Positions 12,193 to 62,696 of a stretch of 64,000 nt of DNA are shown piece after piece. Position 1 is the stretch's first letter, and each line of letters starts with the position of its first letter. Where the stretch lies: the NCBI GenBank assembly GCA_043228905.1, contig JBHGNT010000006.1, positions 21,948,001 to 22,012,000 on the forward strand, written 5' to 3'. Made by a program: the position numbers and the translations under genes. Source of the stretch: Azolla caroliniana (lineage: Eukaryota; Plantae; Polypodiophyta). The notes beneath the pieces were generated by a model. That model saw nothing but the letters and a program-made list of their open reading frames with translations, did not search any database and was not told where the DNA came from.

Positions 12193-12222
<30 letters not shown>
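11954..12222. repeat. two (TACA)n microsatellite tracts upstream of APRT
   Basis: Tracts at about 11954-12060 and 12184-12222. Confidence 0.9.
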
Positions 12223-12224
<2 letters not shown>

Positions 12225-12343
12225 AATATAAATCTCCTCCTCTGCATACTTCAAATACATAGCATTCCAACCTCCTCCTCTCTCTCTCCCTCTCTCTCAT
12301 ACAAGAGAAAATACTTAGAAAACACACACACACATCAAAGAGA

Positions 12344-19655: not shown

Positions 19656-22600
19656 TGTCGTAGTGTAATTCGCACACTACGTGAAAAATTACATTTTTGG
19701 TTTCTCCGGATAGGATATGGAGTACCCAGTGAGAACCGGAAGGAAGAACCGGTGAGGACCGAAACCGGTAAGGAGACCGGCAAGAGCCGGATGAAGAAGG
19801 CCGGTGAGAGTCGGTGAGAAACGGACGAAGAGGACCAGTAAGAAGGATCCGGTAAGAACCAGATAAAGAAAACCGGCGAGAACCGAATGAAGCAGAACCG
19901 GCAAGAGCCGGATGAAGAAGGCCGGTGAGAGTCTCTCACTAGATGAAGAGACATATTTGTAAATAGAAGAAAGTATAAAATTATATATTACATGCATAGG
20001 GCAAGATTCGAACCTTGCACCTCCATGTTAATAATGTTAAGCCTTATCATTATACTAGAGTATTATGAATTTTAAAGTTATACTAAACTTTATCTCATGT
20101 AAAATTTCTAGACATGCATGGTACAAAAAGTTATTCATGCATAGACACTCGAGTTAAAAGAAAAGATGAGATAGAAAGCTAATCATGCACATGCAGTGTG
20201 CATGAAAACTAAAGATAGGAAAAGCATGATGCTTGCATGTGATAAACTTAGACTCTTCCAACACTATATAAGGAAGAGAGAAAGATGTATAGAGGTTGTT
20301 GATTATTTTACAAGGATTTTGATCAATCTAATATATTGGTGGGATTCACGATTTTTTTTCCATCTATTTCTCTCTTACATTCTAAGTATCAATTAATACA
20401 CTATACTCGTGGGATTCATGAGTTTCATATCTTCTTTCAAATATTTCTCTTTCTTGCAATCGATTCATAAGGAGCCTTATCTCATATTCTTCTTTCTCCT
20501 AGTCCAAAACCTCAGCGGTTCCCACCCGACTCACGCAACGATCCGGAGCCGAAAGGCACGACACAAGTGGTGAACCTGACGTGAACACGGGTGGCAAGGA
20601 GATGGAAAATCAACCGGAGGCTAACAACATGATGATGATGTTTGAGCGGATGCTTCAGGAACAACGTGCAATGTTGGAGATAGTGGCGACAGTAGAGCGG
20701 CTCGTGCAACGGATCTGGCAATTCAACGGAAAGGACGTATCACGCTATCTTCGGGACTACAAGGCGGAAACGGTGCGGGATTTCGGAAGGACTGCAAGTG
20801 GCATCCTTCAACCGGGTGGCTACCTACAGGCTTCAAGCAAGTATCCACAGGCTACGACAACAAAATCCGACGTGGGAAGCGTTTGAAGAGGCGCTAAAGA
20901 CCACGTTCGCTATCGAGGACTCCTCCAAGGCAACGCGGAGAGGATTCGAGGATTGGGTAGAAACGCCGGACAAGGGGATGAAGGTCCTCGATGTGTTTTC
21001 GACATTCGAAAATTGGTTCGGGAGGTTGTCTGCGAGAGATCAAGTTATCCTTGCACCGGACAAAGTTATCATGTTCTTACGAGCCGTAGACGTCCGGGAC
21101 CGGAAGGATCTTGGAGTGCTTCTAGAGGACACGAATATCGAGAGTGGCCTCACCGAAACATGGGAAAGCGTGCGGGATATCGTCGCGCGATACACAAAGA
21201 GGGGGCAATGGCTTTCCAACGAAGAAAAGAGGGTTTCAGAACCGATTCCGAAACCGAGATCCAGATCGGAAGACCATCAACCGCGGGCTTGGGAAGCTAC
21301 GACTAAGAAGGGAATCGACGCAACTACGGTGGAGCAATTGCTGAAGGAGATGGAGAATCTGAAAATCGCGATGATGAAGAAGTCGGATGACCGTCCCACA
21401 AGTTCCAAGTATATGGACCGTCGATGCATATGGTGCGATAACACTGAACATGATCGGAGGGATTGCGACAAGCACAAGGAAGTGCTACGACAGGATCTTA
21501 TCTACTACGAGGGAAATCGGATTCATTCGATGGACTCTCGGAAGCCGCTCCGACCGAACTTCTGAAAAGGCGGCATGAAGAAGGTCCTAGAGGAGGAAAT
21601 AACGGCGAAGAACAATTACGCGACAACCGCAGGAATACGTGTCGGGGAGTCATCGGGAGCAAAGGTGTCTTTTTGGCCGGAAGTGCTAGAAAACACCGAG
21701 AAAACCGACTCTAATGAGATCCAAAGCACCGCGGAAGGCATCCGGGAAGCTACGGCATGAGAGTGCCCCGTCGATAAGAATAGCGTGTTTGCTTTATGCC
21801 AATTGCATGAAGTGTATGTAGATGAGAAGCGACGGCACACGGATGAGGTGGCCGGTCCATCGAAGACACCGGAAAGCTGGAACTCCGGAGGTAAGGGAAA
21901 AGAAAAGATGATTCTGGCATTCAAGCTCACCTCAGACATCGAACAACAAAAGGACTTGAAAAAGGTGTTCGAGGAGAGAATCCTCGATAGCCGGGTAGAT
22001 TTTTCGCTTCGAGAATTACTCGGAATAGCGAAGGAGTTCCATGAGCTTCTTGTGGATCTCGTGAAGAGAAAAAGGCAAAGTACGGAGGAGAACGCTCCAA
22101 GGGTGAATGCAAATACCGTTCTAATGAATGACACCGAATTGGAGAACGAAATACCGAATTCTCATGACACAAAGCCACATTGGGCACGCGCAACTACAGA
22201 GACTCCGGTCTGAATTGGTAACATCAAAGAACCCGTGCTAGCATTGATTGATCATGGATTAGAGATAAACTTGATGTCCAAGGAATTCTACAGGAAGGGT
22301 AAGTGGCCTATTAACACAAATCATGGGTGGAAGTTCCGGGCGGTCACTAAAGCAACGAAAGATATATTTGCGGCTTGTCCGGATGTGACGGTGAAGATCG
22401 GGGATGTCGAGATCGACCAAAATTTCTTCATACAAGACGAGGTCTCACACTCCGTGATCCTCGGGCAACCTTTTATCACGGCATCACGGATGGAGACGAA
22501 GGTGCTTGATAGCAGTGCGGCTTTTGCGCGAATTCGGAGCCAAAACGGAGGGAAATCCGTCCAATTCCTAACGGTGCCGGAAATCATGAAAGGAACAAGA

Positions 22601-29703: not shown

Positions 29704-30559
29704 TGTCATGATATGGCAAGACTCAAACCCATGACCTTATGTTACATGGGTCGAGCTCTTGACCATTACACTATCTATTGTAATATGTAGGATATTATTT
29801 TTATTTAAGTTTTGCTATAGAAAATTAATGTATATTCAAGATTTCTCTAGAACATTCTAGAAGCTTCAGGATTACTCCTAAGAACACTATAAAAGGAGGC
29901 ACAAGGCATTATTTCAAACCAAATCAGTTCAACGCTAGTCTTAAGTCTCCTAGCCTTCCTTGCATATATTCTTCTCACATAATATATCGCTGTCATCATC
30001 ATTTTCTCTCCCTCGATCTCTCACTCACTCACGCACTCCCCCCCCCCCCCCCCCCCCTCTCTCTCTCCCTCTCCTTCTCTCGAGGGTTCTACACCCTCTA
30101 TTCCTCTTAGTACTAATTTCTTCTCTGTCTCAGTACTATTCCTGACAATTTGAACTGATTTTCCTCCTTCCGTCTCCTCCTCTTCCTTTTATCTTCTTAC
30201 ATATCCCCTTTTTTCCGGTCTTCTTTCCGGTTTCCCTAATCTTCTTACCCCTTTTTCCCCTTCATTCTAATCCTCTTATCCTCCCTAGTAAAATGGAAAC
30301 TATTAGCACTCAGGAATACCAATCAGTTTTCTCGGAGCTCCAGTGCTTAAAAGAGAAATTTGTAGCACTAGAACAAGAAAATCACCATTTGTTGGGAGAT
30401 CTTCAACAAATAGCGCTGGAAAAACAACAACATGGGGAGCTGAAGTTACGTGTACAACAACTTGAAGTGACTATTGTATCACTACAACAACAAGGATCAA
30501 GCACTCAAGGGATTCACAAAGAACCCAAGATCGGTCTTCCTGCAAAATTTGATGGGACC
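29704..30559 (+). mobile_element. truncated Tcn1/Tf1-sushi-like chromovirus: 5' LTR (29704-30147) plus gag N-terminus (30293-30559)
   Basis: TGTCA...TGACA LTR with TATAAAA at 29888; gag coiled coil ending EPKIGLPAKFDGT, typical of Tcn1/sushi gag; no tRNA PBS. Confidence 0.8.
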
Positions 30560-32205
30560 TTCCGTAGGCTTTCTTTTGCTCGGCGGAGGTTGTCGGCAGT
30601 CTTCCGTTATTCCTCCTCCGCCGCCATTTTTAATTCTCTTTTCCTGGTCCGTAATGCTTCCTGTGCGGCCAGGTCTTCTTTGAGAATGGCAAGCTCTTGT
30701 GCTTGCGCTGTAATTGTATCCGGGATTGTTTCCGTCACCGGGGTCGTATTATTATGTACAGTTGTCGGTGTTTCATTATTCTGTACATGTATCGGAGCCA
30801 CCGATTCTTATTCCTGGGGTCCTGTTATGACCATCTTAGCCAATTCCTCCGTGACTATTTCCAATTCTTGTTCCAAGCTCCAAATCCTTGACCGGGCCTT
30901 CTCTAGTTCTCCGGTTGTGGCTAGCAACCAGTCCAATTGTGCTTTCTCTTCGGCCTCCATATAATGGACCACTCTGGCTATTTGCTCACCGATCCACTGC
31001 ATCCATTGGTTGTCGGTGCCTTGTTGCTGTGTCCGTGCGGAGGGTTGGCCGATTTTTGCACTTGCCAGTGGCTGATCTTGTCTGGTTACGTCGATTGGCA
31101 ACTCTGGCTCCGGTTGGTAACCACTTGGCAGTTCCGGCTCTGGTTGGTCCTGGTGTGCTGGTGGTGTAGACAACTGAATCACCGACTCCTGAATCACGAG
31201 TCTTGTTATGTCCTGACCCGCTGACGTAGCTTGTTGCGCAGGGAATTCTGTGACCAGTTCTGTTCGAACCGGTTCCGATTCCACCCTTGGTTCTGGGCTC
31301 TCAGTGTGGGGTATCGACGTCCTATCCTTCGCTGGACCCGATTGCTCCCCAACATGGTCTGCAGTGCTCTTCTTCTGGCGCCGCTGGAGGTGCTCGCTGG
31401 GCTCCTCCTCCGTTTCCTCCTCATGAGTCCCAAGATTGATTTCCATTGCCAAGGGATCTGGCTCCTGTTGACCTGGTCGTCGCAATGCAATCTTTATTGG
31501 CTGTGCCGGTGTTTCCTCCTGCGTCTCCACCTGCCGTTTCCGGTTAGGCCGCTCTTTCGCCTTTTTTTCAGTGTCGGCCTCCTTCCATTTGGTTGCCTTA
31601 GCAGCTAATAGCTGCTGCCGTTTTGAAGCTGTTTTGGGGGTTCCTTCGGTTGATCTCCCTCGCTTCTTCGCCGTGATGGGCTCCACTGGTGGTGCTAACA
31701 GTGTGAGCCATTGTGCCACTACCGTCCATATTTTCCTGCCATCCTTCCCTCTTATCGAGTCGATGGTCGTGCGTAGTTCGTCGGCGATCAGCACCGACCA
31801 ATGCACTTGTATACCCTCATATGTGGCTATAATTAAACCGGCTCTATTCCTAGGCATTGCCGGGGGTCGAGGGTACACATGGCCAAACTCGTGGAGTACA
31901 CGAACAATCTCTCGGAATAAGCCATCCTCACCGCCCTGTGTGCGATATGCCTTGCTGGCCAGAGAGTACTCACTGAAGTATTTCGTGAGCTGCTTCGGGG
32001 TAGTGTTGTCGATGGTGAAGATGCCGCCTTCGGGTAGGCCCGTCAGGGCATGGATTGCCTCCTCTGTGATTACTTCTGTGTTGATGTCTTTGACAACCTT
32101 TTCCGCCTCTCTGTGTGGTGGTGCCTCCATGATCCTCAAGAATCCTTCCAATCCGTGTTGCTTCAACCACTTCTTGGCTGCCTTAGAGAGTGTCATGGAG
32201 TCCAT
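30560..32205 (-). pseudogene. extra (env-position) ORF of gypsy C1
   Basis: 30808..32205 and 30607..30801 are homologous to 53729-56485 (WLKQHGLE, ITEEAIHALTGLPEGG, YEGIQVHW). Confidence 0.8.
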
Positions 32206-35200
32206 TTCTCCTTCTGAGTCGGTGGGTGCTGGTGAGGTAGTGCGTTAGTGGGCTTTGGGTGCTCGCGTCTGATTATCTTTAATCGCCTGTGTGCGTTTGC
32301 ACTTCTTTGTTTGCGAAATTCGAAGACTTCCATGCAGTGGAGGTTTTCTTTCTGCATGTTGGCGACTTTCTCGATTCCCGCGCATGCGCACATCGTGTAC
32401 TATAATAGCAATGAAGTGCCACGTGGCGGCGTTTTAATGCGCTATAAATAGCCCACTACGTGGCTTTTCAAAGTGCCCGTTCACTCCTCCCTTGTCATGG
32501 CATGTGGCAGTTCGCTTCTCGCCATCGCATGATTTGGGTTTGATTTGATCTAATTTGATTGATTGATTTATTTTTAGATTTGATCTTGTTAATCCGTATC
32601 CGGCCCAAACAGACCCTTCCCCGGATTGTGGTCCCTTTCACCAGTTTCGTGCTTGCCGATTGCTTGACCGGTTATCGTCTCGTTGTGCTTACCGGTGTCC
32701 GGTTCGGTGTCAGCCTTTGTTTGTTCAAACGAGTTTCTTGGCATGGGTCCATAGTATGGTTTGAGTCGAAACCCATTGACCCATTGACCCATAACTTCTC
32801 CGGCGAGTGTCCCTAGTTGGTAGGAACCGTTGAACTCTCGTGTAATCCAATATGGTCCGGTCCACCAAAACCGTAGCTTCCTCGACATCTTACCCATCCG
32901 GGTCTGGAATACAAGTACCGGCTTGCCGATCTCTAACATTTTTTCATTACCTTTCCGGTGTCGATCGACGAATGCTTTCCTTCTCCGTTGCTCCAGTTCC
33001 ATGTGCATCAGGCTGGCTATCCGGTGTTCCTCTAGTTCGCATAGTGTTGCTAGCCGGATTGTTTCCGACTCCTTCTCGTTTAGGCGTTCCCGAACTTGTA
33101 ACCGCAAACTGGGAACCTGGAATTCAATCGGCATTACCGCTTCCAATATGAATGCTAATTGGAAAGGCGTTGCCTAGATACTCGTCTTATATGCTGTCCG
33201 ATAGGCGTAGAGTGCACTGTGCAGCTTCGTATCCCAATCCGTCTGGTTCTCATTGATGATTTTTCGCACGATGTTTTGTAGCGTCTTATTTGTGGATTTG
33301 GCTAATCCGTTGGCTTGCGGATAATATGCCATCTGCGCCTTTATGGTACAGTGTGTCCTGTAGTAGGCAGAAGTGCCGGCTTTGTACTACTAATTGTTTC
33401 CGGTCATCTTTGTTCATCTCCTCTGAAGGTAATCCGGTGCTCAGGAATTGGTGCATGTTAGTGAGCCACTTGTCCTCCTCGGTGACCGTACCATCTGTTG
33501 CCGTTTTTGCTGTGACCCGAAAGAACTCTGCATCCGGAAACTCGTCTGGGACTCCATCACCGGTTTCACCGGAGTCTAACCAGCTCAAATAATCCACAAT
33601 TGCATGTTGTATGCCTGGCCGGTGAAATATCTCGAACTCAAATTCCTGTAATAATAACGTCCACCGGGCTAGCTTACTCGTGAGTGATGCTTTTGAGATC
33701 AAGTAAAGTAGCGTTGAATGGTCTACATGAAAGGAAAATTTCCTCCCCAATAGATAGTGTCAGAACTTGGTGACGTTGTAGATCATGCCCAAGGCTTCTC
33801 TTTCCGTCGTTGAGTAATTACGTTCCGCCTGGGACAGCTTCCGGATGGCATAAAACACGAGCCGGTACCACTTCGGTTCGGTAAGCTGCATTAATGCGTT
33901 CCTAATTGCTATGTCGGGCGCGTCTACGAATACGTGGAATTCTTTAGACCAATCCGGAGGTTGCACCAATGGTGCTTGTGATAGTAGTACTTTTAATGCC
34001 CAGTAAGCCTTCTCTTCTGTGTCCGTCTAGTGAAACGGCGTCTGGTGCACCGCATCATGCAATGGTGTGGCTAGGTCTGCCAGATACCGGAGCATCCGGC
34101 TATGCCACCGGATTTTTTCTAGGAACCGACTCAATGCTTTCGCCGTGGTGCATGCCGGTGCCTCCAAAATTGCTTTGACCTTGTCCGGGTCTACTGCAAT
34201 ACCGTCCTTGCTAACGATGTGGCCTAGTAATGCACCGCTTGACACTCTAAACACGCATTGCGCCGGGTTAAGGCTTAACCGGTAAACCCTACATTTCTCA
34301 AGACATAGGCGGAAGTGTTGGAGGTGTTCCCTTTCCTAGCTGTACACGGTGAAATTGTCTAGGAACACCTGCATGAATGTTGGAATAAATTCTCCAAAAA
34401 TATCCATGATTATCTGCTGAAAGGTTGTCAGCGCCGTTTTAAGTCCGAACATCATGACTACGACGACAAATACTCCCCATTCGGTAACAAAAGCGGTTTT
34501 CTCTTGGTCGTCGGGGTGCATTCGGATCTGATTGTAGCCGCTGAACCCGTCTAGGAAACTATAAATTTCGTGACCGGCTACTTCATCCAGGACTCCATCC
34601 ATAAAAGGGAGTGGGAAGGCGTCGGTTACCGTTGCCACATTCAACTTCCAGTAGTTGACACATACCTTGATTTTTCCGTTCTTTTCGGTATGACGACTAT
34701 CGGACTCAGCCATGTCGCCTTCTTGACCAGTCGGATGAACCCTACCCGTAACAATTTGTCGATTTCGTCCTTTAGGTTTGCTGCATAGTTAGGGTTCATC
34801 TGGTGGCGTCATTGCGCCACCGGCTTGTCATCCTTACTCAGATGTATCTGGTGTTGATGCAACTGAGGATCTAGCCCCCACATGTCTTCATAAGACCACG
34901 TGAATACGTCCTGGAACTCCTTTAATAAGGTGATCATTGCCGTCTTCCTTTCTGGAGTCATTTCTCTAGCGATGTGAACCAGTCTTGCATCTTCTACGGT
35001 GCCTAGGTTTACCTCTTCCAACTGAGAGGATTTTACGCATTGAGATATTGCCAATTCCTTCTCCAAAGCTTCCTGCGCTTGCCGTAATTCTCTCATGGCT
35101 TCTTTACCCCGTTCTTCATCGGCATCCTCTGGTTGCATAATATATGGTGTCACTGCTTCGGCAACATCGACCTCTTCATCAGCCAATCCTTCAAGCGTGT

Positions 35201-35498
35201 TGACACATTCCGCATACAGCGGTGTCAGCTCCTTGCCGGTACTCGAACGTGGTTGTGTAGGTACTCGTACTTTCGCTTTGCCGCGCCAGAAAGTAATTAT
35301 GTTTTTCCACCAATTTTGCTTGATGTGCGCTGTTTTTAGCCATGGGCGGCCCAACAACAGTGGGTATGCCCCTTGTGCATTGAGCTGGAGGACTACTGCC
35401 AAAATGCGGAATGCGTGACCTCCGATAGTCACTTCCAAATGTCGTATCAATCCGGTAGGTCTTACTGAACTTGTGTCTGCCATCCGGAGCGAAAACGG

Positions 35499-36261
35499 TG
35501 TCGTAGTGTAGGTTGCACACTATGTGGAAATTATATTTTTGTCCCTCCGGATAGAGAATGGAGTGCTCGGTGAGAACCGGAAGAAAACGGCATACCGGCA
35601 AGGAAGAGACGGATAAAGAGACATAAATGTAAAAGAAAAAGGAAATACTCACTACTGCGCAGGGCGTGATTCGAACTCTGCACCTCCACGTTGACAAACC
35701 CCAACCTTACCATTACATTAACTTATCTTAAGTGTTTTAAATATAGATTTAATACGTATAAGACCTTTATTTATGCATACCTTTATTAAAAGGTAAATCG
35801 TGTATTTTTTTTTAATATATGAAAAAGACGAGACACTAAAAATAACTCATGCACATCTAGCGTGCATGAGCCCTATACTTAGGAAATAAAAAAGCATCAC
35901 ATGCACATTTAGTGGACATGAACACTTTTTGTAAAAAAAAAAAAAAAGCAGGAAGCCATGCTTAGCTCTTCCTTCCTTATATAAGGAGGAGAGAAATATG
36001 TAAAGGGTTGTTGATTATTTGGATTAAGTATTAATCAATACAAAAATTATTCGTGGGATTCACGATTTATACGTCTACTTCTCTCTTAACACCCTAAGTA
36101 CCAATTAATATAGTATACTCGTGTGATTCACGAGTTTCTTATCTTTCTCTTTGCTATTAACTCATAATTAATCTCTATCTCACGAACTTCTTTCTCCTAG
36201 TCCAAGACCTCTGTGGTTCCCACCCGACTCACGCAACGATCCGGAGCCGAAAGGCACGACA
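35499..36261 (+). repeat. 5' LTR (763 bp)
   Basis: TGTCGT...ACGACA; TATA in ccttatataagg near 35975. Confidence 0.95.
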
Positions 36262-36265
36262 CAGT

Positions 36266-36283
36266 TGGTGAACCCGACGTGAA
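36266..36283 (+). promoter_or_regulatory. PBS complementary to tRNA-Trp 3' end
   Basis: TGGTGAACCCGACGTGAA is the reverse complement of the plant tRNA-Trp end TTCACGTCGGGTTCA-CCA (tRNA sequence from memory). Confidence 0.85.
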
Positions 36284-36299
36284 GACGGGTGGCAAGGAG

Positions 36300-38339
36300 A
36301 TGGAGGCTCAACAAGCTAACAATATGATGGCGATGTTCGAACGGATGCTTCAAGAACAACGCACGATGTCGGAGATTTCGGCATCAGTAGAGCGGCTCGT
36401 GCAACGCAACGGGCAATTTAATGGTAAGGATGTGTCGCAATATTTGCAGGACTACAAGGCGGAGATGCTCCGGTGCCGGGCTCCGGAAGGACTACAAGTG
36501 ACATCCTTTAACCGGGTGGCGACCGACGGGCTTCAAGGGAGTATCCACGGGTTGCAACAACAAAATCCGACGTGGGAAGCATTCGAAGAGGCGTTAAAGA
36601 CCACGTTTGCCATCGAGGACTCCTCCAAGGCAACGCGGAGGGGATTCGAGGATTGGGTGGAAACGTCAGGTAAGGGGCTGAAGGTCCTCGAAGTGTTTTC
36701 GACATTCGAAAGTCGGTTCGGGAGGTTGTCCGCGAGAGATCAAACTATTCTTGCACCGGACAAAGTCATCATGTTTTTGCGAGCTGTGGACGTCCGGGAC
36801 CGGAAAGATCTCGGAGTGCTTCTTGAGGACACGACCACCGAAAGCGGCCTCACCGAAACATGGGAAAGCGTGCGGGATATCGTCGCGCGGTACACGAAGA
36901 GGGGGCAATGGCTTGCCAACGAAGAAAAGAGGGTTTCGGAACCGATTCCGAAACCGAGAACGGGACTGGAAGACCATCAACCGAGGGCTCGGGAGATTAC
37001 GGCCGAGAAGGGAGTCGACGCGTCTACGGTGGAGCAGCTGCTGAAGGAGATGGAGAATCTAAAGATCGCGATGGTGAAGAAGTCGGATGACCGCCCCACA
37101 AGCTCCAAATATACGGATCGACGGTGCATATGGTGCGATAGCGCCGAACACGATCGGAGGGATTGCGACGACCATAAGGAGGCACTACGACGGGATCTCA
37201 TCTACTACGAGGGAAACCGGATTCATTCGATGGACTCTCGGAAGCCACTCCGACCGAACTTCCGGAAAGGCGGCATGAAGAAGGTGCTCGAGGAGGAGTT
37301 AGCAGCAAGAAGCAACTATGCGACAACCGCGGGAATATGTGTCGGGGAGTCATCGGGAGCGAAGGCGTCTTTCTGGCCGGAGGTGCTAGGAAACACCGAG
37401 AAAACCGACTCCAACGATATCCGAAACACCGCGGAAGGCGTCCGGGAAGCTACGGGATGGGAGTGCCCTGTCGACAAGAATAGCATATACGCCCTGTGTC
37501 AATTACATGAGGTGTATGTGGACGAGAAACGACGGCGCACGGAGGATGCGGCCGGACCATCGAAGATACCGGAAAGCTGGAACTCCGGAGGTAAGGGAAA
37601 AGAAAAGGCGACTCCGGCATTCAAGCTCACCTCGGACATAGAACAACAAACCGACTTGAAAAGAGTGTTCGAGGAAAGAATCTTGGATAGCCGGGTAGAT
37701 TTTTCGCTGCGGGAACTACTCGGAATAGCGAAGAAGGAGTTTCACGATCTTCTCGTGGATCTCGTGAAAAGGAAGAGACAAAGTACGGAGGAAAATGCTC
37801 CAAGGGTGAATGCAAATACCGTTTCAATGAACGACACCGAAGTGGAAGGCGAAATTCCGAACTCCCACTATACAAGGCCACACTGGGCACGTGCGACTAC
37901 GGAGACTCCGGTCCGAATCGGCAACATCAAAGAACCCGTGCTAGCATTGATTGATCATGGATCGGAGATCAACTTGATGTCCAAGGAGTTCTACCGAAAG
38001 GGGAAGTGGCCTATAAACACCAACCATGGATGGAAGATTCGGGCAGCCACGAAAACGACAGAAGACCTATTTGCGGCTTGTCCGGATGTGACGGTAAAGA
38101 TCGGGGATGTCGAAATTGACCAAAATTTCTTTGTGCAGGATGAGGTTTCACATTCTGTCATCCTCGGCCAACCCTTTATCACGGCTTCACGGATGGAGAC
38201 GAAGGTGCTCGATAGTGGTGCGGCTTTTGCGCGAATTCGTAGCCAAAACGGAGGGAAATCCGTCCAATTCCTAACGGTGCCGGCAAATCACGAAAGGAAC
38301 AAGAGGGAACTCTTGTCCCAAGTGAGAATGGATTTTTAA
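36300..38339 (+). CDS. Gag-protease ORF1 (679 aa from first ATG)
   Basis: Open frame; CCHC knuckle CIWCDSAEHDRRDC; aspartic protease ALIDHGSEINL and ILGQPF. Confidence 0.92.
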   Translation: MEAQQANNMMAMFERMLQEQRTMSEISASVERLVQRNGQFNGKDVSQYLQDYKAEMLRCRAPEGLQVTSFNRVATDGLQGSIHGLQQQNPTWEAFEEALKTTFAIEDSSKATRRGFEDWVETSGKGLKVLEVFSTFESRFGRLSARDQTILAPDKVIMFLRAVDVRDRKDLGVLLEDTTTESGLTETWESVRDIVARYTKRGQWLANEEKRVSEPIPKPRTGLEDHQPRAREITAEKGVDASTVEQLLKEMENLKIAMVKKSDDRPTSSKYTDRRCIWCDSAEHDRRDCDDHKEALRRDLIYYEGNRIHSMDSRKPLRPNFRKGGMKKVLEEELAARSNYATTAGICVGESSGAKASFWPEVLGNTEKTDSNDIRNTAEGVREATGWECPVDKNSIYALCQLHEVYVDEKRRRTEDAAGPSKIPESWNSGGKGKEKATPAFKLTSDIEQQTDLKRVFEERILDSRVDFSLRELLGIAKKEFHDLLVDLVKRKRQSTEENAPRVNANTVSMNDTEVEGEIPNSHYTRPHWARATTETPVRIGNIKEPVLALIDHGSEINLMSKEFYRKGKWPINTNHGWKIRAATKTTEDLFAACPDVTVKIGDVEIDQNFFVQDEVSHSVILGQPFITASRMETKVLDSGAAFARIRSQNGGKSVQFLTVPANHERNKRELLSQVRMDF

Positions 38340-38393
38340 AGCGGACTGTTGCGGAGTGGGGAAGTGATAGTCCGAGAAGCCCTGATACCCCAC
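38330..38393 (+). promoter_or_regulatory. predicted -1 ribosomal frameshift signal (G GAU UUU plus H-type pseudoknot)
   Basis: Heptamer 38330-38336 precedes the ORF1 stop; stem 38342-38350/38366-38374; GTGGGG 38356-38361 pairs with CCCCAC 38388-38393; pol is in the -1 frame. Confidence 0.85.
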
Positions 38394-41300
38394 ACAGGAA
38401 GAAAACTCTCGGAGCAAAACAAGTACGAATCGGCCCGGATGGGGCATCTACGTACACGGCCGTAACCGGAGGAATGAAGAAACAATACCGACAAGTGGAG
38501 GATAAGTTACGGTCGGCATCAATAATAAAAGAAGACGAAGAAATCGTGGGAGTGATCGAGGAAGTGTTCTATGGGAATACACTACAACGGCTTGAAGAGC
38601 TTGCGGAAGATAAAAGCCAAGGGAACCGGGTAGTCCCGGTGGAATCGGTCGAGATGTACGAGATCGTTGCGAAAATGGGGCCGGATGCGCTCCGCAAAGA
38701 AGAAGCAATGGTAAGTACGAAATACAAGACCGTGGAGAAGAAGGTGAAACCGGCCGCGGGACCACTACCCGCCGATAGCGAACAAAAGAAGAAAGAAGTC
38801 TTGGGAGATCCGACACTTCGGAAGTCCGTGGATATCGGACATGCCTTCACAGATGAGACCCGGAAGAAACTTCGGATCGGTGGAGGTGGGTTCCTCTTAC
38901 AAGAAGAAGAAAAACGGTTTCGAGAGATGTTGGAGCAACATGGCAAAGCATTCGCGTTCACATCGAGGGAGATCGGATGCATTGATCCAAAGATAGTGGA
39001 GCCGATGGTGATTTTCACGATTGATCATGTACCGTGGAACCTGAAGCCGATTCCGGTGCCACGGGCGCATATTCCGAAAGTCATCGACTTGCTCAAGGAG
39101 AAGGTGGCGATGGGGATTCTAGAGCCATCAAGTGCTCCGTACTCAAATCGATGGTTTACGGTTCCGAAGAAGAATGGGTCACTCCGATTCATCCAAGACT
39201 TGCAACCGGTGAACAAGGTCACGATCCGGAACTCGGGAGTCGGTCCGATAGTGGACGAATTCGCGGAAGCTTTTGCCGGACGTGCGATATACTCCATCGG
39301 GGACCTATACTCGGGGTATGACCAATTCCAACTAGCCGTGGAGAGCCGAGACATCACTACCATGCGGACACCGATAGGACTAGTTCGAATGTGCACACTA
39401 CCACAAGGAGCGACAAACTCGGTTGCACATATGATGAACGCGATGAACAAGGTGCTTCGAGATTGCATCCCGGAGATAACGATGCCGTTTCTAGATGACA
39501 TTCCGATGAAAGGATGCGCGGTGGAAGAAAAAGATGAGACTATGGATGATCGGGGATGCCGAAAGTTCGTGGTCGACCATATTCATGATTGCGAGAAAGT
39601 GTTGCGAAAGCTAGAAGATGTGCACCTAACACTTTCCGGGGAGAAATCGGCATTCGGGCAAGAAGAAATATTGGTGGTCGGACATCTATGTGGACCCTAC
39701 GGCCGAAGACCGTCACCAACAAAGATCGATGCGATTCAAGCTATGAAGGAAGTATGTGAGTCAACATCGGAAGTCCGAAGGTTTCTGGGTGCGTGTGCAT
39801 TCTATCACATATGGATTCCGCACTATGCACATATAGCGGACCCGCTCTATCACTTGTTGCGGAAAGGTAAGAAATTCGAGTGGAAACCGGAACACACTAA
39901 AGCCATGAGGAAGCTCAAGAAGACACTATGGAGGGCGGAATCACTTAAGAAGCCAAGCTACGAGCGGCCAATCATAGTAACGGTTGATACAAGTCCAACC
40001 GGTATCGGGTGGGTCATCAATCAAGCCGACTCGGATGGTTCGCGGTATCCGATCCGATTTGGAGCAAAGGTCCTTAACGAAAGGCAACGCGGATATGCAC
40101 AAGTCAAAAGAGAATTGTGGGGAGTCGTGTCGGCGATAAAATCGGATCGGGATTATTTGATCGGAGCTGAAGTGGTGGTCGAGACGGATTGTCTTCCGAT
40201 ACTCGGGATGATGCGGTGTTGTACGATACCGGATGTGGCTATGCTAAGGTGGATTGCATATGTCAAGTCACTTAATCCGGAGGTTCGACACATCTCGGGG
40301 AAGGACAACGCGGTAGCGGACATGTTATCGAGGGCACAGTTTGAAGACGACATAACCGAATCAGATAATGAAGAAGTTTCCGAAGACTACTTCACGTCAG
40401 AACACATATGCCGAGTGAACGTGATCCGAGAATTCCGGGAAGAAGAATACGAAGGGGAAACCTTGATGATCGGGAAGATGCTACAAGAGGTCGAGGATTC
40501 AACCAATGATAAAGAAAGGAGAGCCGAGATCCGAAGGAAGAAGAGGCAAGTCCAAAAGTTCTTCTTGGAAAACAGTTTAATATGGAGGACGCCGAAAAGA
40601 CCGGATGGGATACCACTTCGAGTAGTCGGGACGAAAGAGCAACGAAACTGGATAATGTCCGAGTTCCACGAATCCGATTGGGCTGGACATCGAGGAACAT
40701 GGGCAACTTTTGTGAAAATCAAGAAAAGATATTGGTGGAAGAACATGTATATAGATGTCGCGGAGTTCACAGAAAGCTGCGAGAAATGTCAAGTCTACTC
40801 CGGGGTCCGACACCGAGATGAGCTGCATCCGACATTCTCACCGACAATCAACTTCAAGTGGATGGTCGACATTGTAGCTATGCCGACCGGGATTGGACAA
40901 AAGAAATACTTGGTGTTAGCTCGAGAAGATCTCACAAACCAAGTTGAAGGTCGAGCGCTTCGGAGGAAAACGTGTGCCGCGGTGTGCCAATTTCTTTTGG
41001 AAGAAGTGTTTTGTAGGTACGGCTGCGTAGGACAAGTGATTGCGGACCGGGGAGAACTCGACTCGGACAAAGCTAGGGGATTCTTCGCCAAACATGGAGT
41101 TCGGTTAACGTTGACAACGACCTACAATCCGGAGGCCAACGGGAAGATCGAACGAGGACATAGTCCGATCGTGAAAGCACTTGCGAAGGCATGCGACGGA
41201 AGGGTGAAGGATTGGCCACAAATGCTTCCGTATGCACTATGGGCGGATCGGACGACGCATAGCTCCGTGACCGGTTACATGCCGGCAGAACTCATGACCG

Positions 41301-41941
41301 GACAAGCACCGGTAATGCCAACGGAAACCGCAATCGCGACATGGACAATACTACCGTGGAAGGAAGAGATGAGCCGGGAAGAACTACTAGCAGTCCGGAT
41401 ACGACAACTGGAGGGAAGACCGAAAGATGTAGCGGAAGCGTCACGCCGACAACAAGAAGCACGGTTCCGGAACAAAAGCCGGTTCGACACAAAGCACCGA
41501 CTACGACCGAGGAGGATTGAAGAAGGAGATTGGGTGATCGTCTATGATAGTAGCTTGGACCATCAACATACAACGATGCGGAAATTCGCGAAAAGGTGGT
41601 TCGGGCCGTACGAGGTTCGGAAGGTCTTCGACAACGGGACGTACCGACTGTCCGAGTTGGATGGAACAATACTACGAGTGCCTATAGCCGGGAAGCGGGT
41701 GAAGATTTTCAAGAAGCGGACCGATGACAAACCTTATGTGATCCAAGTCGAGGCCGACAACGAGGAGCAATCGGACGAAGACCACAATGATACGGGAAGC
41801 GAAGAAAGTGGATTACAACTCATAGTCGACATAAGGGGAGAATCGGAGGAACCTTCGGATGAAGACGGATACGAAGAATCAAGAACTTCGGCACATACCG
41901 GAGGATGTGCGGGTTTGGAGGGGGCGAGTGTCGTAGTGTAG
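38336..41941 (+). CDS. Pol ORF2 (RT, RNase H, integrase); open from the frameshift site, first ATG at 38474
   Basis: RT DLYSGYDQ, LPQGATNS, FLDD; RNase H VTVDTS; integrase HESDWAGH/CEKC, MVDIV, ADRGE, KIERGH, FGPY; no chromodomain; stop lies inside the 3' LTR. Confidence 0.94.
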   Translation, partial: LKRTVAEWGSDSPRSPDTPHRKKTLGAKQVRIGPDGASTYTAVTGGMKKQYRQVEDKLRSASIIKEDEEIVGVIEEVFYGNTLQRLEELAEDKSQGNRVVPVESVEMYEIVAKMGPDALRKEEAMVSTKYKTVEKKVKPAAGPLPADSEQKKKEVLGDPTLRKSVDIGHAFTDETRKKLRIGGGGFLLQEEEKRFREMLEQHGKAFAFTSREIGCIDPKIVEPMVIFTIDHVPWNLKPIPVPRAHIPKVIDLLKEKVAMGILEPSSAPYSNRWFTVPKKNGSLRFIQDLQPVNKVTIRNSGVGPIVDEFAEAFAGRAIYSIGDLYSGYDQFQLAVESRDITTMRTPIGLVRMCTLPQGATNSVAHMMNAMNKVLRDCIPEITMPFLDDIPMKGCAVEEKDETMDDRGCRKFVVDHIHDCEKVLRKLEDVHLTLSGEKSAFGQEEILVVGHLCGPYGRRPSPTKIDAIQAMKEVCESTSEVRRFLGACAFYHIWIPHYAHIADPLYHLLRKGKKFEWKPEHTKAMRKLKKTLWRAESLKKPSYERPIIVTVDTSPTGIGWVINQADSDGSRYPIRFGAKVLNERQRGYAQVKRELWGVVSAIKSDRDYLIGAEVVVETDCLPILGMMRCCTIPDVAMLRWIAYVKSLNPEVRHISGKDNAVADMLSRAQFEDDITESDNEEVSEDYFTSEHICRVNVIREFREEEYEGETLMIGKMLQEVEDSTNDKERRAEIRRKKRQVQKFFLENSLIWRTPKRPDGIPLRVVGTKEQRNWIMSEFHESDWAGHRGTWATFVKIKKRYWWKNMYIDVAEFTESCEKCQVYSGVRHRDELHPTFSPTINFKWMVDIVAMPTGIGQKKYLVLAREDLTNQVEGRALRRKTCAAVCQFLLEEVFCRYGCVGQVIADRGELDSDKARGFFAKHGVRLTLTTTYNPEANGKIERGHSPIVKALAKACDGRVKDWPQMLPYALWADRTTHSSVTGYMPAELMTGQAPVMPTETAIATWTILPWKEEMSREELLAVRIRQLEGRPKDVAEASRRQQEARFRNKSRFDTKHRLRPRRIEEGDWVIVYDSSLDHQHTTMRKFAKRWFGPYEVRKVFDNGTYRLSELDGTILRVPIAGKRVKIFKKRTDDKPYVIQVEADNEEQSDEDHNDTGSEESGLQLIVDIRGESEEPSDEDGYEESRTSAHTGGCAGLEGASVVV

Positions 41942-42737
41942 GTTGCACACTATGTGGAAATTATATTTTTGTCCCTCCGGATAGAGAATGGAGTGCTCGG
42001 TGAGAACCGGAAGAAAACGGCATACCGGCAAGGAGGAAAACGACATACCGGCAAGGAAGAAAACGGCATACCGGCAAGGAAGAGCCGGATAAAGAGACAT
42101 AAATGTAAAAGAAAAAGGAAATACTCACTACTGTGCAGGGCGTGATTCGAACTCTGCACCTCCACGTTGACAAACCCCAACCTTACCATTACATTAACTT
42201 ATCTTAAGTGTTTTAAATATAGATTTAATACGTATAAGACCTTTATTTATGCATACCTTTATTAAAAGGTAAATCGTGTATTTTTTTTTAATATATGAAA
42301 AAGACGAGACACTAAAAATAACTCATGCACATCTAGCGTGCATGAGCCCTATACTTAGGAAATAAAAAAGCATCACATGCACATTTAGTGGACATGAACA
42401 CTTTTTGTAAAAAAAAAAAAAAAGCAGGAAGCCATGCTTAGCTCTTCCTTCCTTATATAAGGAGGAGAGAAATATGTAAAGGGTTGTTGATTATTTGGAT
42501 TAAGTATTAATCAATACAAAAATTATTCGTGGGATTCACGATTTATACGTCTACTTCTCTCTTAACACCCTAAGTACCAATTAATATAGTATACTCGTGT
42601 GATTCACGAGTTTCTTATCTTTCTCTTTGCTATTAACTCATAATTAATCTCTATCTCACGAACTTCTTTCTCCTAGTCCAAGACCTCTGTGGTTCCCACC
42701 CGACTCACGCAACGATCCGGAGCCGAAAGGCACGACA
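41929..42737 (+). repeat. 3' LTR (809 bp)
   Basis: Same as the 5' LTR plus two extra 23-bp units and two substitutions seen by eye. Confidence 0.95.
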
Positions 42738-44531
42738 ACGGGCACGGCTACTAGTCCTGGATTCCCAGGGTATTACAAGTTCGGAGGCTAATCACGTTCA
42801 CGACGGATCCTCCGTCTATAATTGTTCCGGGTAGCTCTCGTCCCTTGACGATGGCTGTGATAGCCGGACTGCTCGTGTCCACTACTGTCAATCCTTCCTC
42901 CGGATTAGAAAAGAACGCCAGAGCCAGTGGCGTGTCGACCACAATCATTCCCGTCTTCAGTCCTTCCGTAAACTGAGGTACTAACTGCAATAGCCGACCT
43001 AATGGTAGTGTGATTTGGCATTCTTGCAATGCCTGCCATGTTGGGTTTTCCGCCTGGCTATTGCCGGTGGGATCCTTTGGATTCTGTTTTTGTTGTTCCA
43101 GTTCTGCCACATTCCGCTCATTTGCCTTCTTTACCCATTCGGTGGCCTGCTTCCGGATGGCTTCTTGGGTTTCCCACTCCGTTGCTTTTCCTTTTGACCT
43201 CGTGGTCACTTGTTGTATGTCCGCGACTTCCGCTACCACCATGTTTACCGCTGGTCGCTTATCGTAGCTTTTCGCCGGACATTGGTTACTGTAGTGTCCC
43301 TCTTGTCAGCAATAGCAGCAGTAAGCCTTCCGGTTGTTGCTGGGTTCTGCTTTCGCTCCAGGACCCGGTTGAGGTCCTGTTGTAAGTGCTTGGCCTTGGT
43401 CCGGTTGGGTGCTTGGTGTACCCTTTTCCGGCTCTTGTTGGTGATCCCCTTTTTTATTGAAATGCCGTTTTTTGTTGAAATGCTTTTTGTTCCGGTAACC
43501 CTGTCAGGGCCGGTCGTCATACTTGCCATAGTCCTCCCTTCGTGGGTTGTAACTGGGGGAGTGATCCCGGTTGTATCGCTCATTCCGTTCCCCATTATAG
43601 TCCCGATATCTATCATATCTATCATACCGGCCGCGATCATAAGTGTCTCTTCGATCACTCTACCGGATATCTTGTGCCGGCCGGTAACACTCCTCTCGCC
43701 GCTAGCACTCTTCTTCCTCCTCCTAGTTGCTCCGTGGTTCGATTTGCCGGACCGGTGGCTCTTGCTGATTCAACAAGTTATACTCGCACTGATCCATTGT
43801 GTGGTTTCTGGACTGGCAAAGTAGGCATTGAGAACGCATGGTGCACTCCAGCGCCGAGTGTTCGGCATTCAGGCAAGTCGTACATTGAATTGCTTGTCAA
43901 AATCGAAGGTCTTCATCGGTTGGTAACATTCGTTGGAGTGCCCCCATCGTTAGCCACGAACTGGATTTTCCATTTCCCTCAGTTGGTCTATGACCTGGTT
44001 GACGGAACTTGTGTGGAAATCAATGACTGTGCACACCGTTCGTAGGGGTTCCCGGAGTGTTGCTAGGAATATCGCTTTAGTCTCTTTCTCCAGTGGTGCC
44101 CAACTGAGTTGTCTGTGCATTCTCTGGAATCGGATTACAAATTGTTGAATGTTCTCCGTGGGCTCTTGGTGGATGGTATAAAATAGGCCGACCATTTCCC
44201 GTTGATCCACCTCTTTGTGAGAAAAGTGTAAGAATTTAGTTTTCAATACCTCAAACGTCATGATGGTGTTGGGATCTTGCGTCAGGTGCTATTTGGCAGC
44301 GGGCCCTTCTAGGGTCATGTCGAACTCCGCCATCTTTAAGCGTTTTGCTTCGGCTGCGATTAAGCGTTGTGACACATGATTCGCTTCCCAGGTCTGCTGA
44401 AATGCATAGACGTGGGCCTCTGCATCCCAATTATCCCGGTACTTGGGATATTGAAACGACATGTCGTCGTCTGGTGTTGGAATGTGGGCTAGTGGTGTCA
44501 GAGGTCTCTCCTCCTCTGTTGAAGGTCTTTA

Positions 44532-44923
44532 TGTTAGGAAACAGGTCCCTCCAGATGGGATGACCCGGTGAGAACCGGATGTGAAGTACCCGGCAACGGA
44601 AGACCCAGTGAGAACCGGATGACGAGTACCCGGCAAGAGCCGGATGGTGAAGACCCGGTGAGAACCGGATGTGAAGTACCCGGCAATGGAAGACCCGGTG
44701 AGAACCGGATGATGAGTGCCCGGCAAGCGCCGGATGATGCGGGCCCGGTGAGGAGTGCTCACCGGATAAAGGGACATATTCGTAAATATGTTTTCTGAGA
44801 GTCCATCGGGGCTATATTTGTAAATAGCCGAAAAGTCATATTAGTATAAATATGACTTAGGGAAAACTTAGATTGTGTTGTTGTCATTTTTGCTGGCGCA
44901 AGACTAGAGAGCGTGTAACAGTG

Positions 44924-44966
<43 letters not shown>

Positions 44967-45237
44967 AGAGGTCATTGCCTCTGTTGTAACCGCCGCCTGT
45001 GGCGAATATAGCAAGCTTGAGGTCGTTGTCTCTGTGCTCTACTATTGTACATTTTGATATAGTGATAGTTTGCAGTCTGTGGGTTGCCGTGGTTTTTTCC
45101 TGAGTTTGGGTTTTCCACGTAAACATCCTGTGTACTCTTCTCTCCATTGTGTTGTGCTTTCATTCCCCGTTTTCTGTGTTTTATTCTAGGCTCGGTTGTG
45201 GCCGAGCGTTGTTCATCGGAGCGTGTAGTTCTTGACA
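44532..45237 (+). mobile_element. solo LTR (family E) inserted in gag of gypsy C1
   Basis: TGTTAGGAA...TTCTTGACA; near-TSD CTTTA/CTTTC; CCGG-rich tandem repeats; homologous to 47081-47833. Confidence 0.88.
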
Positions 45238-46020: not shown

Positions 46021-47524
46021 ATGAACACTCAAATGGGGAGCGCTCTCCCTACCGAGAAGTTGGATTGAAACAACTTTGCATCTTGGGAGTACAAGATGCA
46101 CCAATACCTTGTCGGACAAGGCTATTGGCGCTACATCAAAGGAGCGCATGAAGACCGACCCGCCGAAGCGGCTCCTAGATACGCAACATGGGAGCAAGCC
46201 GCAAGTTGCGTGATGTATTGCTTGGCGACATGTGTTCACGATCACATGCTCGGCTACATTCGCGAAGCCAAGACGCCAAAGGAGGCATGGGAAAATCTAC
46301 AAAAGATTTTCGCGGCGAACACAACCGCAAGAAGGCTTCAACTCCGCCAAGAGTTGAACAACATTCAACAAAGGGACATGTCCATCACGACATACACCTC
46401 GAAGATCAAGGAGCTTTGCGATTCGCTCGGCTCAATAAGCGTAAATATTGATGATGATGAGATGGTTCAAATATGCCTCAGCGGCCTCGCACAACGGTTC
46501 GGCGCGATGCGAACCGCTGTTCTAGCACGGGAGAAATCTCCCTCCTTCTTCGAGCTCCAATCAATGCTATTGGTCGAAGAAAACCATGTGTGTACAAGGA
46601 ACAATGAGTCGGAAGGCCACATGCTCTACACGCACTCGAACGGAGGAAGAGGACACGGATGGTTGAGAGGCCGATTCGGCCAAGGACAAGGCGGACGACG
46701 TCCGACGTACGATAACAACTCCCAATTTCGGCCGCAAAACGGAAGCCAACGAGGAACCTTCGCAAGAAGGGGGAGCTTCCACTTCGGCCCGAACCATCAA
46801 AACGCAACCGAATGCGGATATTGCGGAAAGCTCGGCCACCACGAAGAAGAGTGCCGAAAGAAGATCTGTGAATTGGCTTCCACAAGCCGACAACTCACGA
46901 ATTACGCGCACAACTTTGACTATGAAGATCGTGGCAGAATGTATGCACACAACTCGGACCGTGGCGGAATGTTCATGATGAAACATAGAGCAAACTCTAT
47001 GTCGGCCTCTACCTCAACTAGTGCCTCCGGTCTAGAAGACGTATGGTTCGTCGATTCTGGTGCCTCGAACCATATGACATTGTTGGGAGACAGGTCCCTC
47101 CGGATGGGAAGGGAGAAGAACAGTGCCGACGAACAATCTCGGCCGAAACCGGAAGAGGAATACCCGGCTACGGAGAGCCGGATGGTGCAGACCCGGTGTG
47201 AATCGGATGAGGAGTACCCGGCTACGGAGAGCCGGATGGTGCAGACCCGGTGTGAACCGGATGAGGAGTACCCGGCTACGGAGAGCCGGATGGTGCAGGC
47301 CCGGTGAGAACCGGATGAGGAGTACCCGGCTACGGAGAGCCGGATGACGCAGACCCGGTGAGAACCGAAGGAAGAGACATATTCGTAAATATGTTTCTGA
47401 GAGCCCATCGAGGCTATATTTGTAAATAGCCGAAAAGTCATATTAGTATAAATATGACTTAGGGCAAATATGTGTTGTAGTTGTCATTCTTGTGTGTGCA
47501 AGAATAGAGAGTGTGCGTAACTGT

Positions 47525-51736: not shown

Positions 51737-51810
51737 ACTTTCATAGCTCATTTGGTTAGAGCACCCGTTTAGTAAGCGGGAGGTCTTGAGTTTAAATCTC
51801 AATGAAAGCA
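51737..51810 (+). tRNA. tRNA-Thr(AGT), probable pseudogene
   Basis: 74-nt match to plant tRNA-Thr(AGT) GCTTTCATAGCTCAGTTGG...AATGAAAGCA with changes at position 1, in the D loop and in the B box (GAGTTTAAATC). Confidence 0.8.
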
Positions 51811-52227
51811 AACACTCTCTTTACATGATATCTAAATTAGTGCATAGAAGGAAATGGACAAAATCCAAAAATTGATGTTAATATATACTTGACAAAGCAC
51901 TAAAACATAGTTTTCAAGCGAGGTCTTTGAGTTCATCACTAAATGAAAACAAAAACTTTGTTTACTTGATATCTATATTAGTGCATGGAAGGAAATAGAC
52001 CTAATCCAATTGTTATTTTGATCTCATATTTGATGGTGCGCTGAAACATAGATTTTGAGCACATCCAATATTTGGAAGCTTTTATGACTCGTTTGATTTG
52101 ATTACCTATACTTTATTTATAAGCCTTCATAGCATAGTTGCTAAACAAACGTATTTAGTAACAAGTTTGAATGCAAGCTTTTAGTGCATATTTGGATAGG
52201 AAAGTTATTGACTACTTTTTAATGTAA

Positions 52228-52301
52228 GATTTCCTAGCTCAGTTGGTTAGAGCACTTGTTTCGTAAGGGAGAGGTCTTGAGTTCCACTATCAACGAAAGC
52301 A
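52228..52301 (+). pseudogene. tRNA-Thr pseudogene with CGT at the anticodon
   Basis: Full-length copy of the same body, loop TTCGTAA, mismatched stems. Confidence 0.75.
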
Positions 52302-52657
52302 AACACTTCATTTATTTGATATCTAAGTCATTCCATGGAAAGTAGTAGATAGAAGCCAATTGTTGTGTTTACGTGAAACTTAATGACGGGGTTATACATA
52401 TATGTTGACCATATCCAAATATTGTAAGTTCTCATAACTTGTTTGCGCAGATCACGTATACTTTATTTGTAAGCTTTCATAGCATAGTTGATACATAGCA
52501 AATTTGATCAATAAGCTTACTTAGTAATAACCTTGACTGTAAGCTTTCGTAGCTCAGTTGGTTTGAGCACCTGTTTTTGGTAAGCAAGGTTATTTAGTGG
52601 ATTTAAGCTTTGATAGCACCTCGATTAATAAGTTAGTTGGTAATAATCTGAATATAA

Positions 52658-52714
52658 GCTTTCATAGCTCAGTTGGTTAGCGGGAGGTCTTGAGTTCAAC
52701 TCTCAATGAAAGCA
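52658..52714 (+). pseudogene. tRNA-Thr copy lacking 17 nt of the anticodon arm region
   Basis: Perfect 5' (A box) and 3' (B box) parts joined as GGTTAG-CGGGAGG. Confidence 0.8.
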
Positions 52715-53728
52715 AACTCTCTCTTTACTTGATATCTAAATTACTGCATAGAAGGAAATGGACAAAATCCAATTATTGATGTTATTAAATACTTGACAAA
52801 GCAATAAAACATATTTTTATGATGCAGGACTTGAGTTCATCACTAAATGAAAGGAAAAACTTTATTTACGTGATATCTAAATTAATGCATTGAAGAAAAT
52901 AGACTTAATCCAATTGTTATTCTGATCTCATACTTGATGGTGCGTTCAAATATAGATTTTGAGCATATCCAATTATTGTAAGCTTTTATGACTCATTTGT
53001 TCTGATTACCTACACTTTATTTGTAAGCTTTCATAGCATAGTTGGTAAACAAATGTATTTAGTAACAAGTTTGAATGTAAGTGTGAAAGTGTTTTTAGAA
53101 TTCAAGCCATTGAAAATTAGAAGAATATAAGGTTTAAGAAAGTATGTGTTTTTGTATGAATCACGCATCACCATATATGTGGCCTCTTTTGGTTGACATA
53201 GCTGTTAACATAATATAATTGTAATATATTAACATATAATTGTTAACTCTTCGGGCCGGACAATGGCCTAACACAGGGTGTCTACGGGAGACACCTCACC
53301 AAAGGGTGTTACGGCAACCGGATTAGACTTCAACGCTTAATCCGACTTAGTTAAGTTACTTATTAGGATCGTCTTTCATAACACGCGTAAGATATAACAA
53401 TTAAGACAGAATGACAATTAACACAAAGAGATAACAACGCTTAAGCTTTCATTAATTAACCGCCCACTATTACATTGTATCCGGGCCTTTAAATAGGTTT
53501 CCGGTCTGTATTACAAAACGGTGCCATCCGCACCTGTTCGGGATCGGTCCGGATCCGGAACGGCATACCGTTTCCTGTCCGTCCGTCCACACTCATAGCT
53601 TAATTACAACCACATTCCTACTACTTAATTAGCTCTCTGTTTCCCACTCTGGACTCCTTTGCCGGCCGGTAACACATGGCACGCCCGTGGGACAGTACCT
53701 TGTACGTCGAATCCACAACCGACCCTTG

Positions 53729-62660: not shown

Positions 62661-62696
62661 CCATCCGTGCCGTCGTTCGCTGCAAAAACAGGAATC

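Follow-up and report, generated by a model that had tools for sequence, protein, structure and literature searches.

The window analysed here, a stretch of 64,000 nt of the Azolla caroliniana genome, holds a young Phygy-like gypsy element that spans positions 35499-42737 (7,239 nt) and has both gag and pol open (Table 1). Its two LTRs differ by two substitutions and one 46-nt repeat indel, and the TSD ACGG (4 nt) is found on both sides (35495-35498 and 42738-42741). The ORFs (36300-41938) fill the interior (36262-41928) and leave no extra ORF, and a Pfam search of the pol ORF returned no chromodomain match. The 18-nt primer-binding site (PBS) at 36266..36283 is presumably the complement of tRNA-Trp. 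The nearest named pol homologues are those of Riccia (57-72%) and Adiantum (69%), which points to a probable host among seedless land plants. The LTR is matched by thousands of contigs per DNA run, the family being abundant under three organism labels; in one presumed RNA run, six contigs fall on the LTR, and neither strand nor start is readable from them. Phygy elements are recognised by their compact interior and by 4-bp targets of the form NCGN (PMC6317226), and the element resembles Phygy in its NCGN TSD, short length, wholly coding interior and lack of a chromodomain match (PMC6317226, PMC6911290). NCGN also precedes many related LTR starts. The element differs in a tRNA-like LTR module, which the accessible portions of these two articles do not mention for Phygy.

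Table 1. Coordinates of the features discussed, in window positions.
Feature	Position	Strand	Remarks
LTR of older, broken relative	19656..20563	+	
CCGG-rich repeats	19752-19923, 35575-35610, 44605-44745, 47168-47380		
A/B module, older LTR	20004..20057	-	17/19
A/B module, another lineage	29719..29773	-	17/19, 33-nt spacer, C56T; truncated LTR
Self-priming site	30150..30161	+	12-nt complement of 29921-29932
5' LTR	35499..36261	+	763 nt, TGTCGT...ACGACA
5' part of U3	35499..35666	+	CCGG-rich repeats; CpG 5.4 per 100 nt
T5 + T4 runs	35631..35640	-	candidate Pol III terminator; predicted RNA ~90 nt
B box, consensus register	35667..35677	-	8/10 informative positions; all six core bases intact
B box, earlier note's register	35678-35668	-	GAGTTCGAATC; 31 nt from A box
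Spacer, 32 nt	35678..35709	-	tRNA positions 20-51 by count
A box	35710..35720	-	TAATGTAATGG; 8/9 informative positions
Region between module and TATA	35721..35977	+	CpG-poor, CATG-rich; CATGCAC...GTGCATG inverted repeat
TATA box	35978..35985	+	putative Pol II promoter
Primer-binding site, 18 nt	36266..36283	+	
gag-protease ORF	36300..38336	+	open; DUF4100; aspartyl protease match weak
pol ORF	38243..41938	+	uninterrupted, in the -1 frame relative to gag; RT, RNase H and integrase domains
3' LTR	41929..42737	+	809 nt; purine tract just before
A/B module, 3' LTR	42143..42196	-	second copy, same element

Several other features of the window were observed. Two minus-strand gypsy elements (53241-63147 and 30560-45237) carry extra ORFs (54194-56716 and 30811-32244) for which no Pfam family was found. 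A decayed tRNA-Thr-like array at 51737-53081 comprises copies at 51737-51810 (Rfam, 59 bits) and 52228-52301 and further fragments, with periods of 141, 350, 413 and 554 nt; a copia LTR ends at 51736 and abuts the first base (51737) of the first copy.

The motif that concerns us is real: tRNA-spaced A and B boxes lie on the minus strand in both LTRs of the young element and in an older copy. An earlier note had described it from the sequence as a tRNA-type pair with T runs about 25-35 nt past the B box, a repeat in the 3' LTR, a poor cloverleaf and a distance of about 260 bp to the TATA box, and all of its motifs and coordinates for the young LTR are exact. The T5 run (35640-35636) begins 26 nt past the B box and the T4 run adjoins it, the module returns in the 3' LTR (42196-42143), and the A box lies 258 nt from the TATA box (35978). 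Neither ARAGORN nor Rfam matched a tRNA at the window module, Rfam likewise matched none in modules from 11 loci, and the acceptor stem forms only 0-5 of 7 pairs across modules. For scoring, we used the B-box register GGTTCRANYCC, which puts the window B box at 35677-35667 and sets the spacer at 32 nt; the A/B consensus motifs are the general ones, in part as PMC10886601 gives them. Against this consensus, the young window LTR scores 16/19 at the informative positions, a value reached by 0.2% of 2,000 local LTR shuffles on either strand at spacings of 31-33 (chance 0.002). The last 11 nt of its spacer are common to other families, and its predicted RNA folds worse than shuffles (z +1.5).

In the older LTR the boxes read TAGTATAATGA (20057-20047) and AGGTTCGAATC (20015-20005), 31 nt apart in the register of the earlier note, whose account of boxes and spacing is again exact. 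Its remark that much of the spacer differs holds less well: between the young and older families the spacer is identical at 22/32 positions (0.69) and the boxes at 17/22 (0.77), so the window alone is no proof of special box conservation, and the case for it rests on other families. A further module, of another lineage, lies 115 nt before a TATA box (29888); its predicted RNA forms a long hairpin (z -3.7), and its spacer is 25-47% identical to those of other modules. The LTR that holds it is self-primed, and the segment complementary to its priming site (29921-29932) sits just past the TATA box, at the predicted 5' end of the LTR's own RNA. The gag-like ORF of this element runs from 30293, is cut near 30560 and matched no Pfam family at the cut-off. 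Self-priming is reported for Tcn1 (PMC6317226), and from it we infer a Tcn1 label for this LTR. Being one old copy with C56T, its module shows occurrence and not selection.

Recurrence among related LTRs was assessed by a PBS scan blind to the module, which returned 121 loci (designated by L numbers) from 23 of the 64 parts of the sequence collection, 80 of them with full flanks and most of them Phygy-like LTR ends. Unrelated loci were left out, as were those with too little upstream sequence or an indistinct LTR start. Manual delimitation gave 41 LTRs, of which 32 begin clearly and 9 are partial; the two window LTRs brought the set to 43, sorted by U5 into 21 groups. A profile with no spacing term, for which the two window modules (16 and 17 of 19) were the sole seeds, recovered L042, L060, L096, L071, L041, L109 and L033 in round one, with zero matches to reversed decoys, and L093 in a later round. 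A box scan over A-B spacings of 20-60 added two tandem modules each in L098 and L105, a second module in L109, which makes three loci with tandem or double modules, as well as the 29773 module of the window and L046. In total there are 17 modules in 14 LTR-type sequences. The module occurs in 10/43 LTRs and 5/21 groups, and also in the 3' LTRs of L042 and L109; 33/43 LTRs and 16/21 groups are without it. Every one of the 17 reads antisense, its A and B boxes separated by 32 or 33 nt (33 is also the spacing at which tRNA genes of these loci score), and the TATA-proximal module lies about 115-260 nt upstream of the TATA box, where a TATA box was placed. Pairs of at least 17/19 at spacings of 31-33 number 14 in 346 kb vs 0.33 in shuffles, and those listed are all tRNA genes or LTR sequence. 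Several relatives have better boxes than the seeds (L060, 19/19; L071, L096 and L042, 18/19); since weaker seeds found them, ascertainment is no explanation. The L060 module is about 73% identical to phage tRNA-Asn genes over 70 nt (E 0.02-10), which indicates tRNA likeness only and not the tRNA of origin. Nothing related emerged when viral contigs and prokaryote genomes were scanned for the proteins and motifs, the 31 PBS matches being without tRNA-Trp, and three further scan matches in viral or prokaryote sequence were dismissed as chance.

The carriers lie far apart (the gag of L071 is 34%, and the pol of L042 66%, identical to that of the window element) and are scattered on gag and pol trees, both built from alignments projected on the window proteins, the pol tree with FastTree and rooted on a long branch. 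L109 has a single 646-codon frame (100-2040, PBS-forward) in a 2.3-kb interior with no pol before the 3' LTR, and L033 a similar 623-codon frame (847-2715, PBS-forward). Both ORFs are long, charged and unlike the window gag, and by this coding content the two Trp-primed elements are TR-GAG-like and non-autonomous. The L046 module (L046:12069, antisense, 16/19) falls within a short LTR-like stretch (11960-12260) that follows copia RNase H-like sequence and has a different PBS-like site, possibly a copia or TRIM LTR. The module is thus not private to the family of the window element: non-autonomous elements and a self-primed LTR also carry it.

Sense-strand motifs were observed as well. L105, L098 and L074 contain a separate sense tRNA-like module downstream of the TATA box, some 350 nt ahead of the PBS in the first two and some 410 nt in the third, scoring 18/19 with a 33-nt spacer in L105 and 16/19 with a 37-nt spacer in L074. 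A sense B-box-like motif at 36197-36210, about 60 nt before the PBS in the window U5, is kept in many Phygy-like U5 regions (L057, L079, L038, L045, L075) and is near-perfect in groups without the U3 module; it may be a matter of U5 structure rather than a B box.

Judged from its sequence, the module is tRNA-derived. Judged by TSD it is no SINE insertion, and it is no tRNA gene: for all 17 modules the longest shared flanking word is 4-7 nt, which is the chance level, and there is no TSD; a tRNA gene is rejected by the missing cloverleaf and the absence of ARAGORN and Rfam matches. No free copy of at least 17/19 was found outside tRNA genes and LTRs in about 310 kb. Contigs on the LTR run on into unlike sequence in 0-2% of cases, and no joint that skips the module is seen among the matches listed. 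These results bear out the view that an antisense tRNA-type module is built into the U3 of a Trp-primed gypsy element that is autonomous. The family has the module fixed, with no TSD, and boxes and spacing persist between families with differing spacers. The earlier interpretation has to be amended in that the module moves between LTR backbones as part of a U3 cassette and is missing in most related LTRs. Repbase is said to contain "not a few" LTRs with tRNA-like parts, without description (PMC10886601).

The LTRs are mosaics. L033 has its R-U5 in common with L102, which has no module, and its cassette in common with L093; the LTR start of L071 recurs in L095, L088, L086 and L069, none of which has a module, and its CATG region recurs in L098 and L105; L034 has the same U5 as the window element and no module. 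Modules are missing in sisters with the same U5 (L034, L102) or with the nearest gag (L047, L069), and as most LTRs, close sisters included, lack the module, it is dispensable. The mosaic structure also means that the families are not independent and that the cassette is optional. With three CATG-region profiles, every LTR match with enough upstream sequence carries a module, except the short L058. In L060 and L071 a TATA box near the LTR start, where module-less sisters also have theirs, is joined by another within the cassette, which looks like the insertion of a second promoter. Toward the LTR end the module is flanked by 4.0-6.0 CpG per 100 nt, and toward the TATA box by 0.4-1.6, in 8/10 LTRs; L098 and L105 have no such step. 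As separate observations, a CATGCAC...GTGCATG inverted repeat, which we take to be an RY-like motif of B3 factors, lies between the A box and TATA in the window (35840-35880) and in L041, L042, L109 and L046, and CCGG-rich repeats are common to Phygy-like U3 regions and the LTRs of another gypsy lineage, a further sign of LTR part exchange.

The expectation that the boxes are more conserved than the rest holds for part of the material. Among the five profile-found lineages, box columns are conserved at 0.76 vs 0.58 for the other 35 columns (p 0.024), and with other representatives of the same lineages at 0.72 vs 0.57 (p 0.039), the six core B bases reaching 1.0 and 0.87; when the ten homologous copies are all included, box columns stand at 0.70 vs 0.61, and the difference loses significance (p 0.13). 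Conservation at spacer positions 22-32 is 0.76-0.82, on par with the boxes. L071 and L105 are 79% identical in the CATG region and 44% in the spacer, and both have 18/19 boxes; spacers are 25-47% identical in pairs with L105 or the 29773 module, and the boxes stay near consensus. Modules from the box scan were preselected for good boxes, and cassette exchange makes families non-independent. A core B base is broken in 5/17 copies, one of them in a 30x contig (L071). In four DNA runs, 22/201 positions vary at 4% or more, none of them within 35668-35676; in another comparison, G57A, which the consensus allows, occurs at 1-6%. Of five variant box positions, three yield the base of the consensus and the other two are unconstrained by it. 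For each of the window copy's three consensus mismatches a common consensus allele exists, and the other A-box variants fall at two free positions; the bases that depart from consensus at these three sites nevertheless dominate organism A, with about 72%, 97% and nearly 100% of the depth. The zero variants at the 16 consensus positions are not significant alone, given that 22/201 positions vary.

We favour the reading that the module belongs to a portable promoter cassette and is a putative TFIIIC site that would act at the level of DNA to open or shield the Pol II promoter next to it, and we assign it a probability of about one half. A tRNA gene or SINE head would have been captured in a U3, template-switch exchange would have spread the cassette (module, CATG-rich region and TATA), and selection would maintain the boxes. 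TFIIIC on the module would keep the adjoining Pol II promoter open and would block methylation spreading from the CpG-rich LTR end. TFIIIC bound to A and B boxes loads TFIIIB upstream of the A box; here, loading would be divergent, in the AT-rich stretch between module and TATA, and the RNA of about 90 nt would be a by-product. The module faces away from the element and so cannot make genomic RNA. A stem around the B box recurs, and the young window copy keeps the core bases with the stem largely lost, which favours a DNA element. A TATA-like element upstream for Pol III is not a consistent feature, being present in 2/17 modules. TFIIIB/TFIIIC barriers are known in yeast and tRNA-gene insulators in animals, and no such barrier from plants is named in the accessible part of the same article (PMC9540200).

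The TFIIIC-site reading has to be weighed against four others. The module could be a neutral relic, an old tRNA or SINE head in one U3 that hitch-hikes with a useful CATG/TATA cassette, the other cases being separate captures. Patchiness on the gag and pol trees, the mosaic LTRs, the core breaks in 5/17 copies, the drift of the highest-copy subfamily from consensus and the tRNA-like parts noted in Repbase LTRs (PMC10886601) all fit such a history, which we nevertheless hold to be somewhat doubtful: spacer length is constant and boxes are near consensus though spacers fall to 25-47% identity (pairs with L105 or 29773), all U3 cases share one orientation and one zone, and a TSD is missing in 17/17, with no free copy of at least 17/19 in about 310 kb. 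An unlikely alternative places the function in the product, a short antisense Pol III RNA (a hairpin or small-RNA precursor) acting on element RNA or host silencing. A T4 run follows within 40 nt of the B box in 13/17 modules (shuffle mean 9.5, p 0.05) and an A4 run in 2, the B-box stem shows one compensatory change (L096 vs L033), fold z is -2 or lower in 4/17, and foamy-virus U3 regions provide a precedent (PMC3993851). However, a common fold is lacking (RNAalifold returns an empty structure for 17 modules and -0.6 kcal/mol for 8), the young window copy folds worse than shuffles, T5 runs are not enriched (7/17, p 0.16) and spacer sequences turn over.

Poorer still are the chances of an aid to reverse transcription, in which the module, present in genomic RNA as a tRNA complement, would anneal to the primer tRNA and help minus-strand transfer. 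Tentative parallels are the HIV-1 U3-R proposal and the Ty3 3' PBS, for which tRNA annealing in strand transfer has reportedly been proposed; the module has the orientation of the PBS, and the young window copy matches the primer 3' end at 8/14 positions, the best of 17. The other 16 modules match the primer end, as read from the PBS, at only 3-7/14, the boxes track the general consensus and not the primer end, and a self-primed LTR, which needs no tRNA, has the module all the same. It is very improbable that the module is a landing pad, with bound TFIIIB/TFIIIC steering tRNA-targeting elements into these LTRs. A copia LTR does abut the tRNA-Thr gene at 51736/51737, but upstream of the A box the matches listed include neither a joint nor a junction left by an insertion, and Phygy TSDs are NCGN (PMC6317226). 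The TFIIIC site is thus favoured over the relic, the antisense RNA, the strand-transfer aid and the landing pad.

Among known systems, the Helenus/TRIMp3 elements (Helenus, Ajax, Cassandra) come close in having a tRNA-derived LTR stretch with conserved A/B boxes and no working tRNA, for which, in Helenus, a SINE2 insertion origin is proposed (PMC10886601). Helenus elements are non-coding and 311-1,263 bp long, whereas the window element has 7,239 nt with gag and pol open, and their boxes are proposed to transcribe the element, whereas the window module is antisense and upstream of the TATA box (PMC10886601). The boxes indeed read sense in the LTRs of Helenus-1_SMo and Helenus-2C_ToGe. Membership in Helenus/TRIMp3 was rejected on size, coding capacity and orientation, box conservation being the part that fits. 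For autonomous partners, the same article expects reliance on Pol II and no LTR sequence of this kind (PMC10886601). Simian foamy viruses likewise are autonomous retroelements with Pol III A/B units in U3, and under some conditions these units can be dispensed with, but theirs are demonstrated miRNAs from conserved hairpins, and here a module known from sequence has no common hairpin (PMC3993851). Both Helenus (PMC10886601) and the foamy-virus U3 genes (PMC3993851) are closer precedents than Cassandra, which the earlier note had offered. The module shares with tDNA/TFIIIC barriers its A/B boxes at a CpG-rich/CpG-poor boundary. Piekna-Przybylska reportedly described, in 2010, a tRNA-Lys3-like sequence in HIV-1 U3-R, which is alike in being a tRNA-like stretch inside U3; the HIV-1 stretch resembles the primer tRNA, whereas the window-type modules are mostly unlike the primer 3' end and one sits in a self-primed LTR. 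Pol III transcription is also said to occur in Drosophila mdg1. The yeast and animal barriers are host loci with measured binding, as opposed to a mobile element (PMC9540200). The tRNA-derived LTR motifs mentioned in the accessible portion of PMC13570524 are confined to Cassandra and Helenus/Ajax. Helenus TRIMs and foamy-virus U3 are the known precedents for Pol III boxes, and an antisense module in autonomous or plant LTR elements was not found in the literature searched, which covered few subscription papers or Repbase reports.

So far, Pol III boxes in LTRs have been read as viral miRNA genes or as the promoters of very small non-autonomous elements. In a long autonomous element, a module that faces backwards is unable to transcribe its carrier, and another explanation is called for. 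If TFIIIC binds it, the module would be a mobile chromatin device, the natural pairs with and without the cassette (L033/L102 and window/L034) would allow tests of TFIIIC barriers in plants, and the very high copy number would scatter TFIIIC sites through the host genome. More tentatively, LTR elements of seedless plants, in at least two lineages, one tRNA-primed and Phygy-like and the other self-primed, may have repeatedly recruited backward tRNA promoters as a portable, putatively TFIIIC-bound anti-silencing barrier next to their Pol II promoter. If true, this would be the first natural TFIIIC insulator in plants, and one encoded by the element itself.
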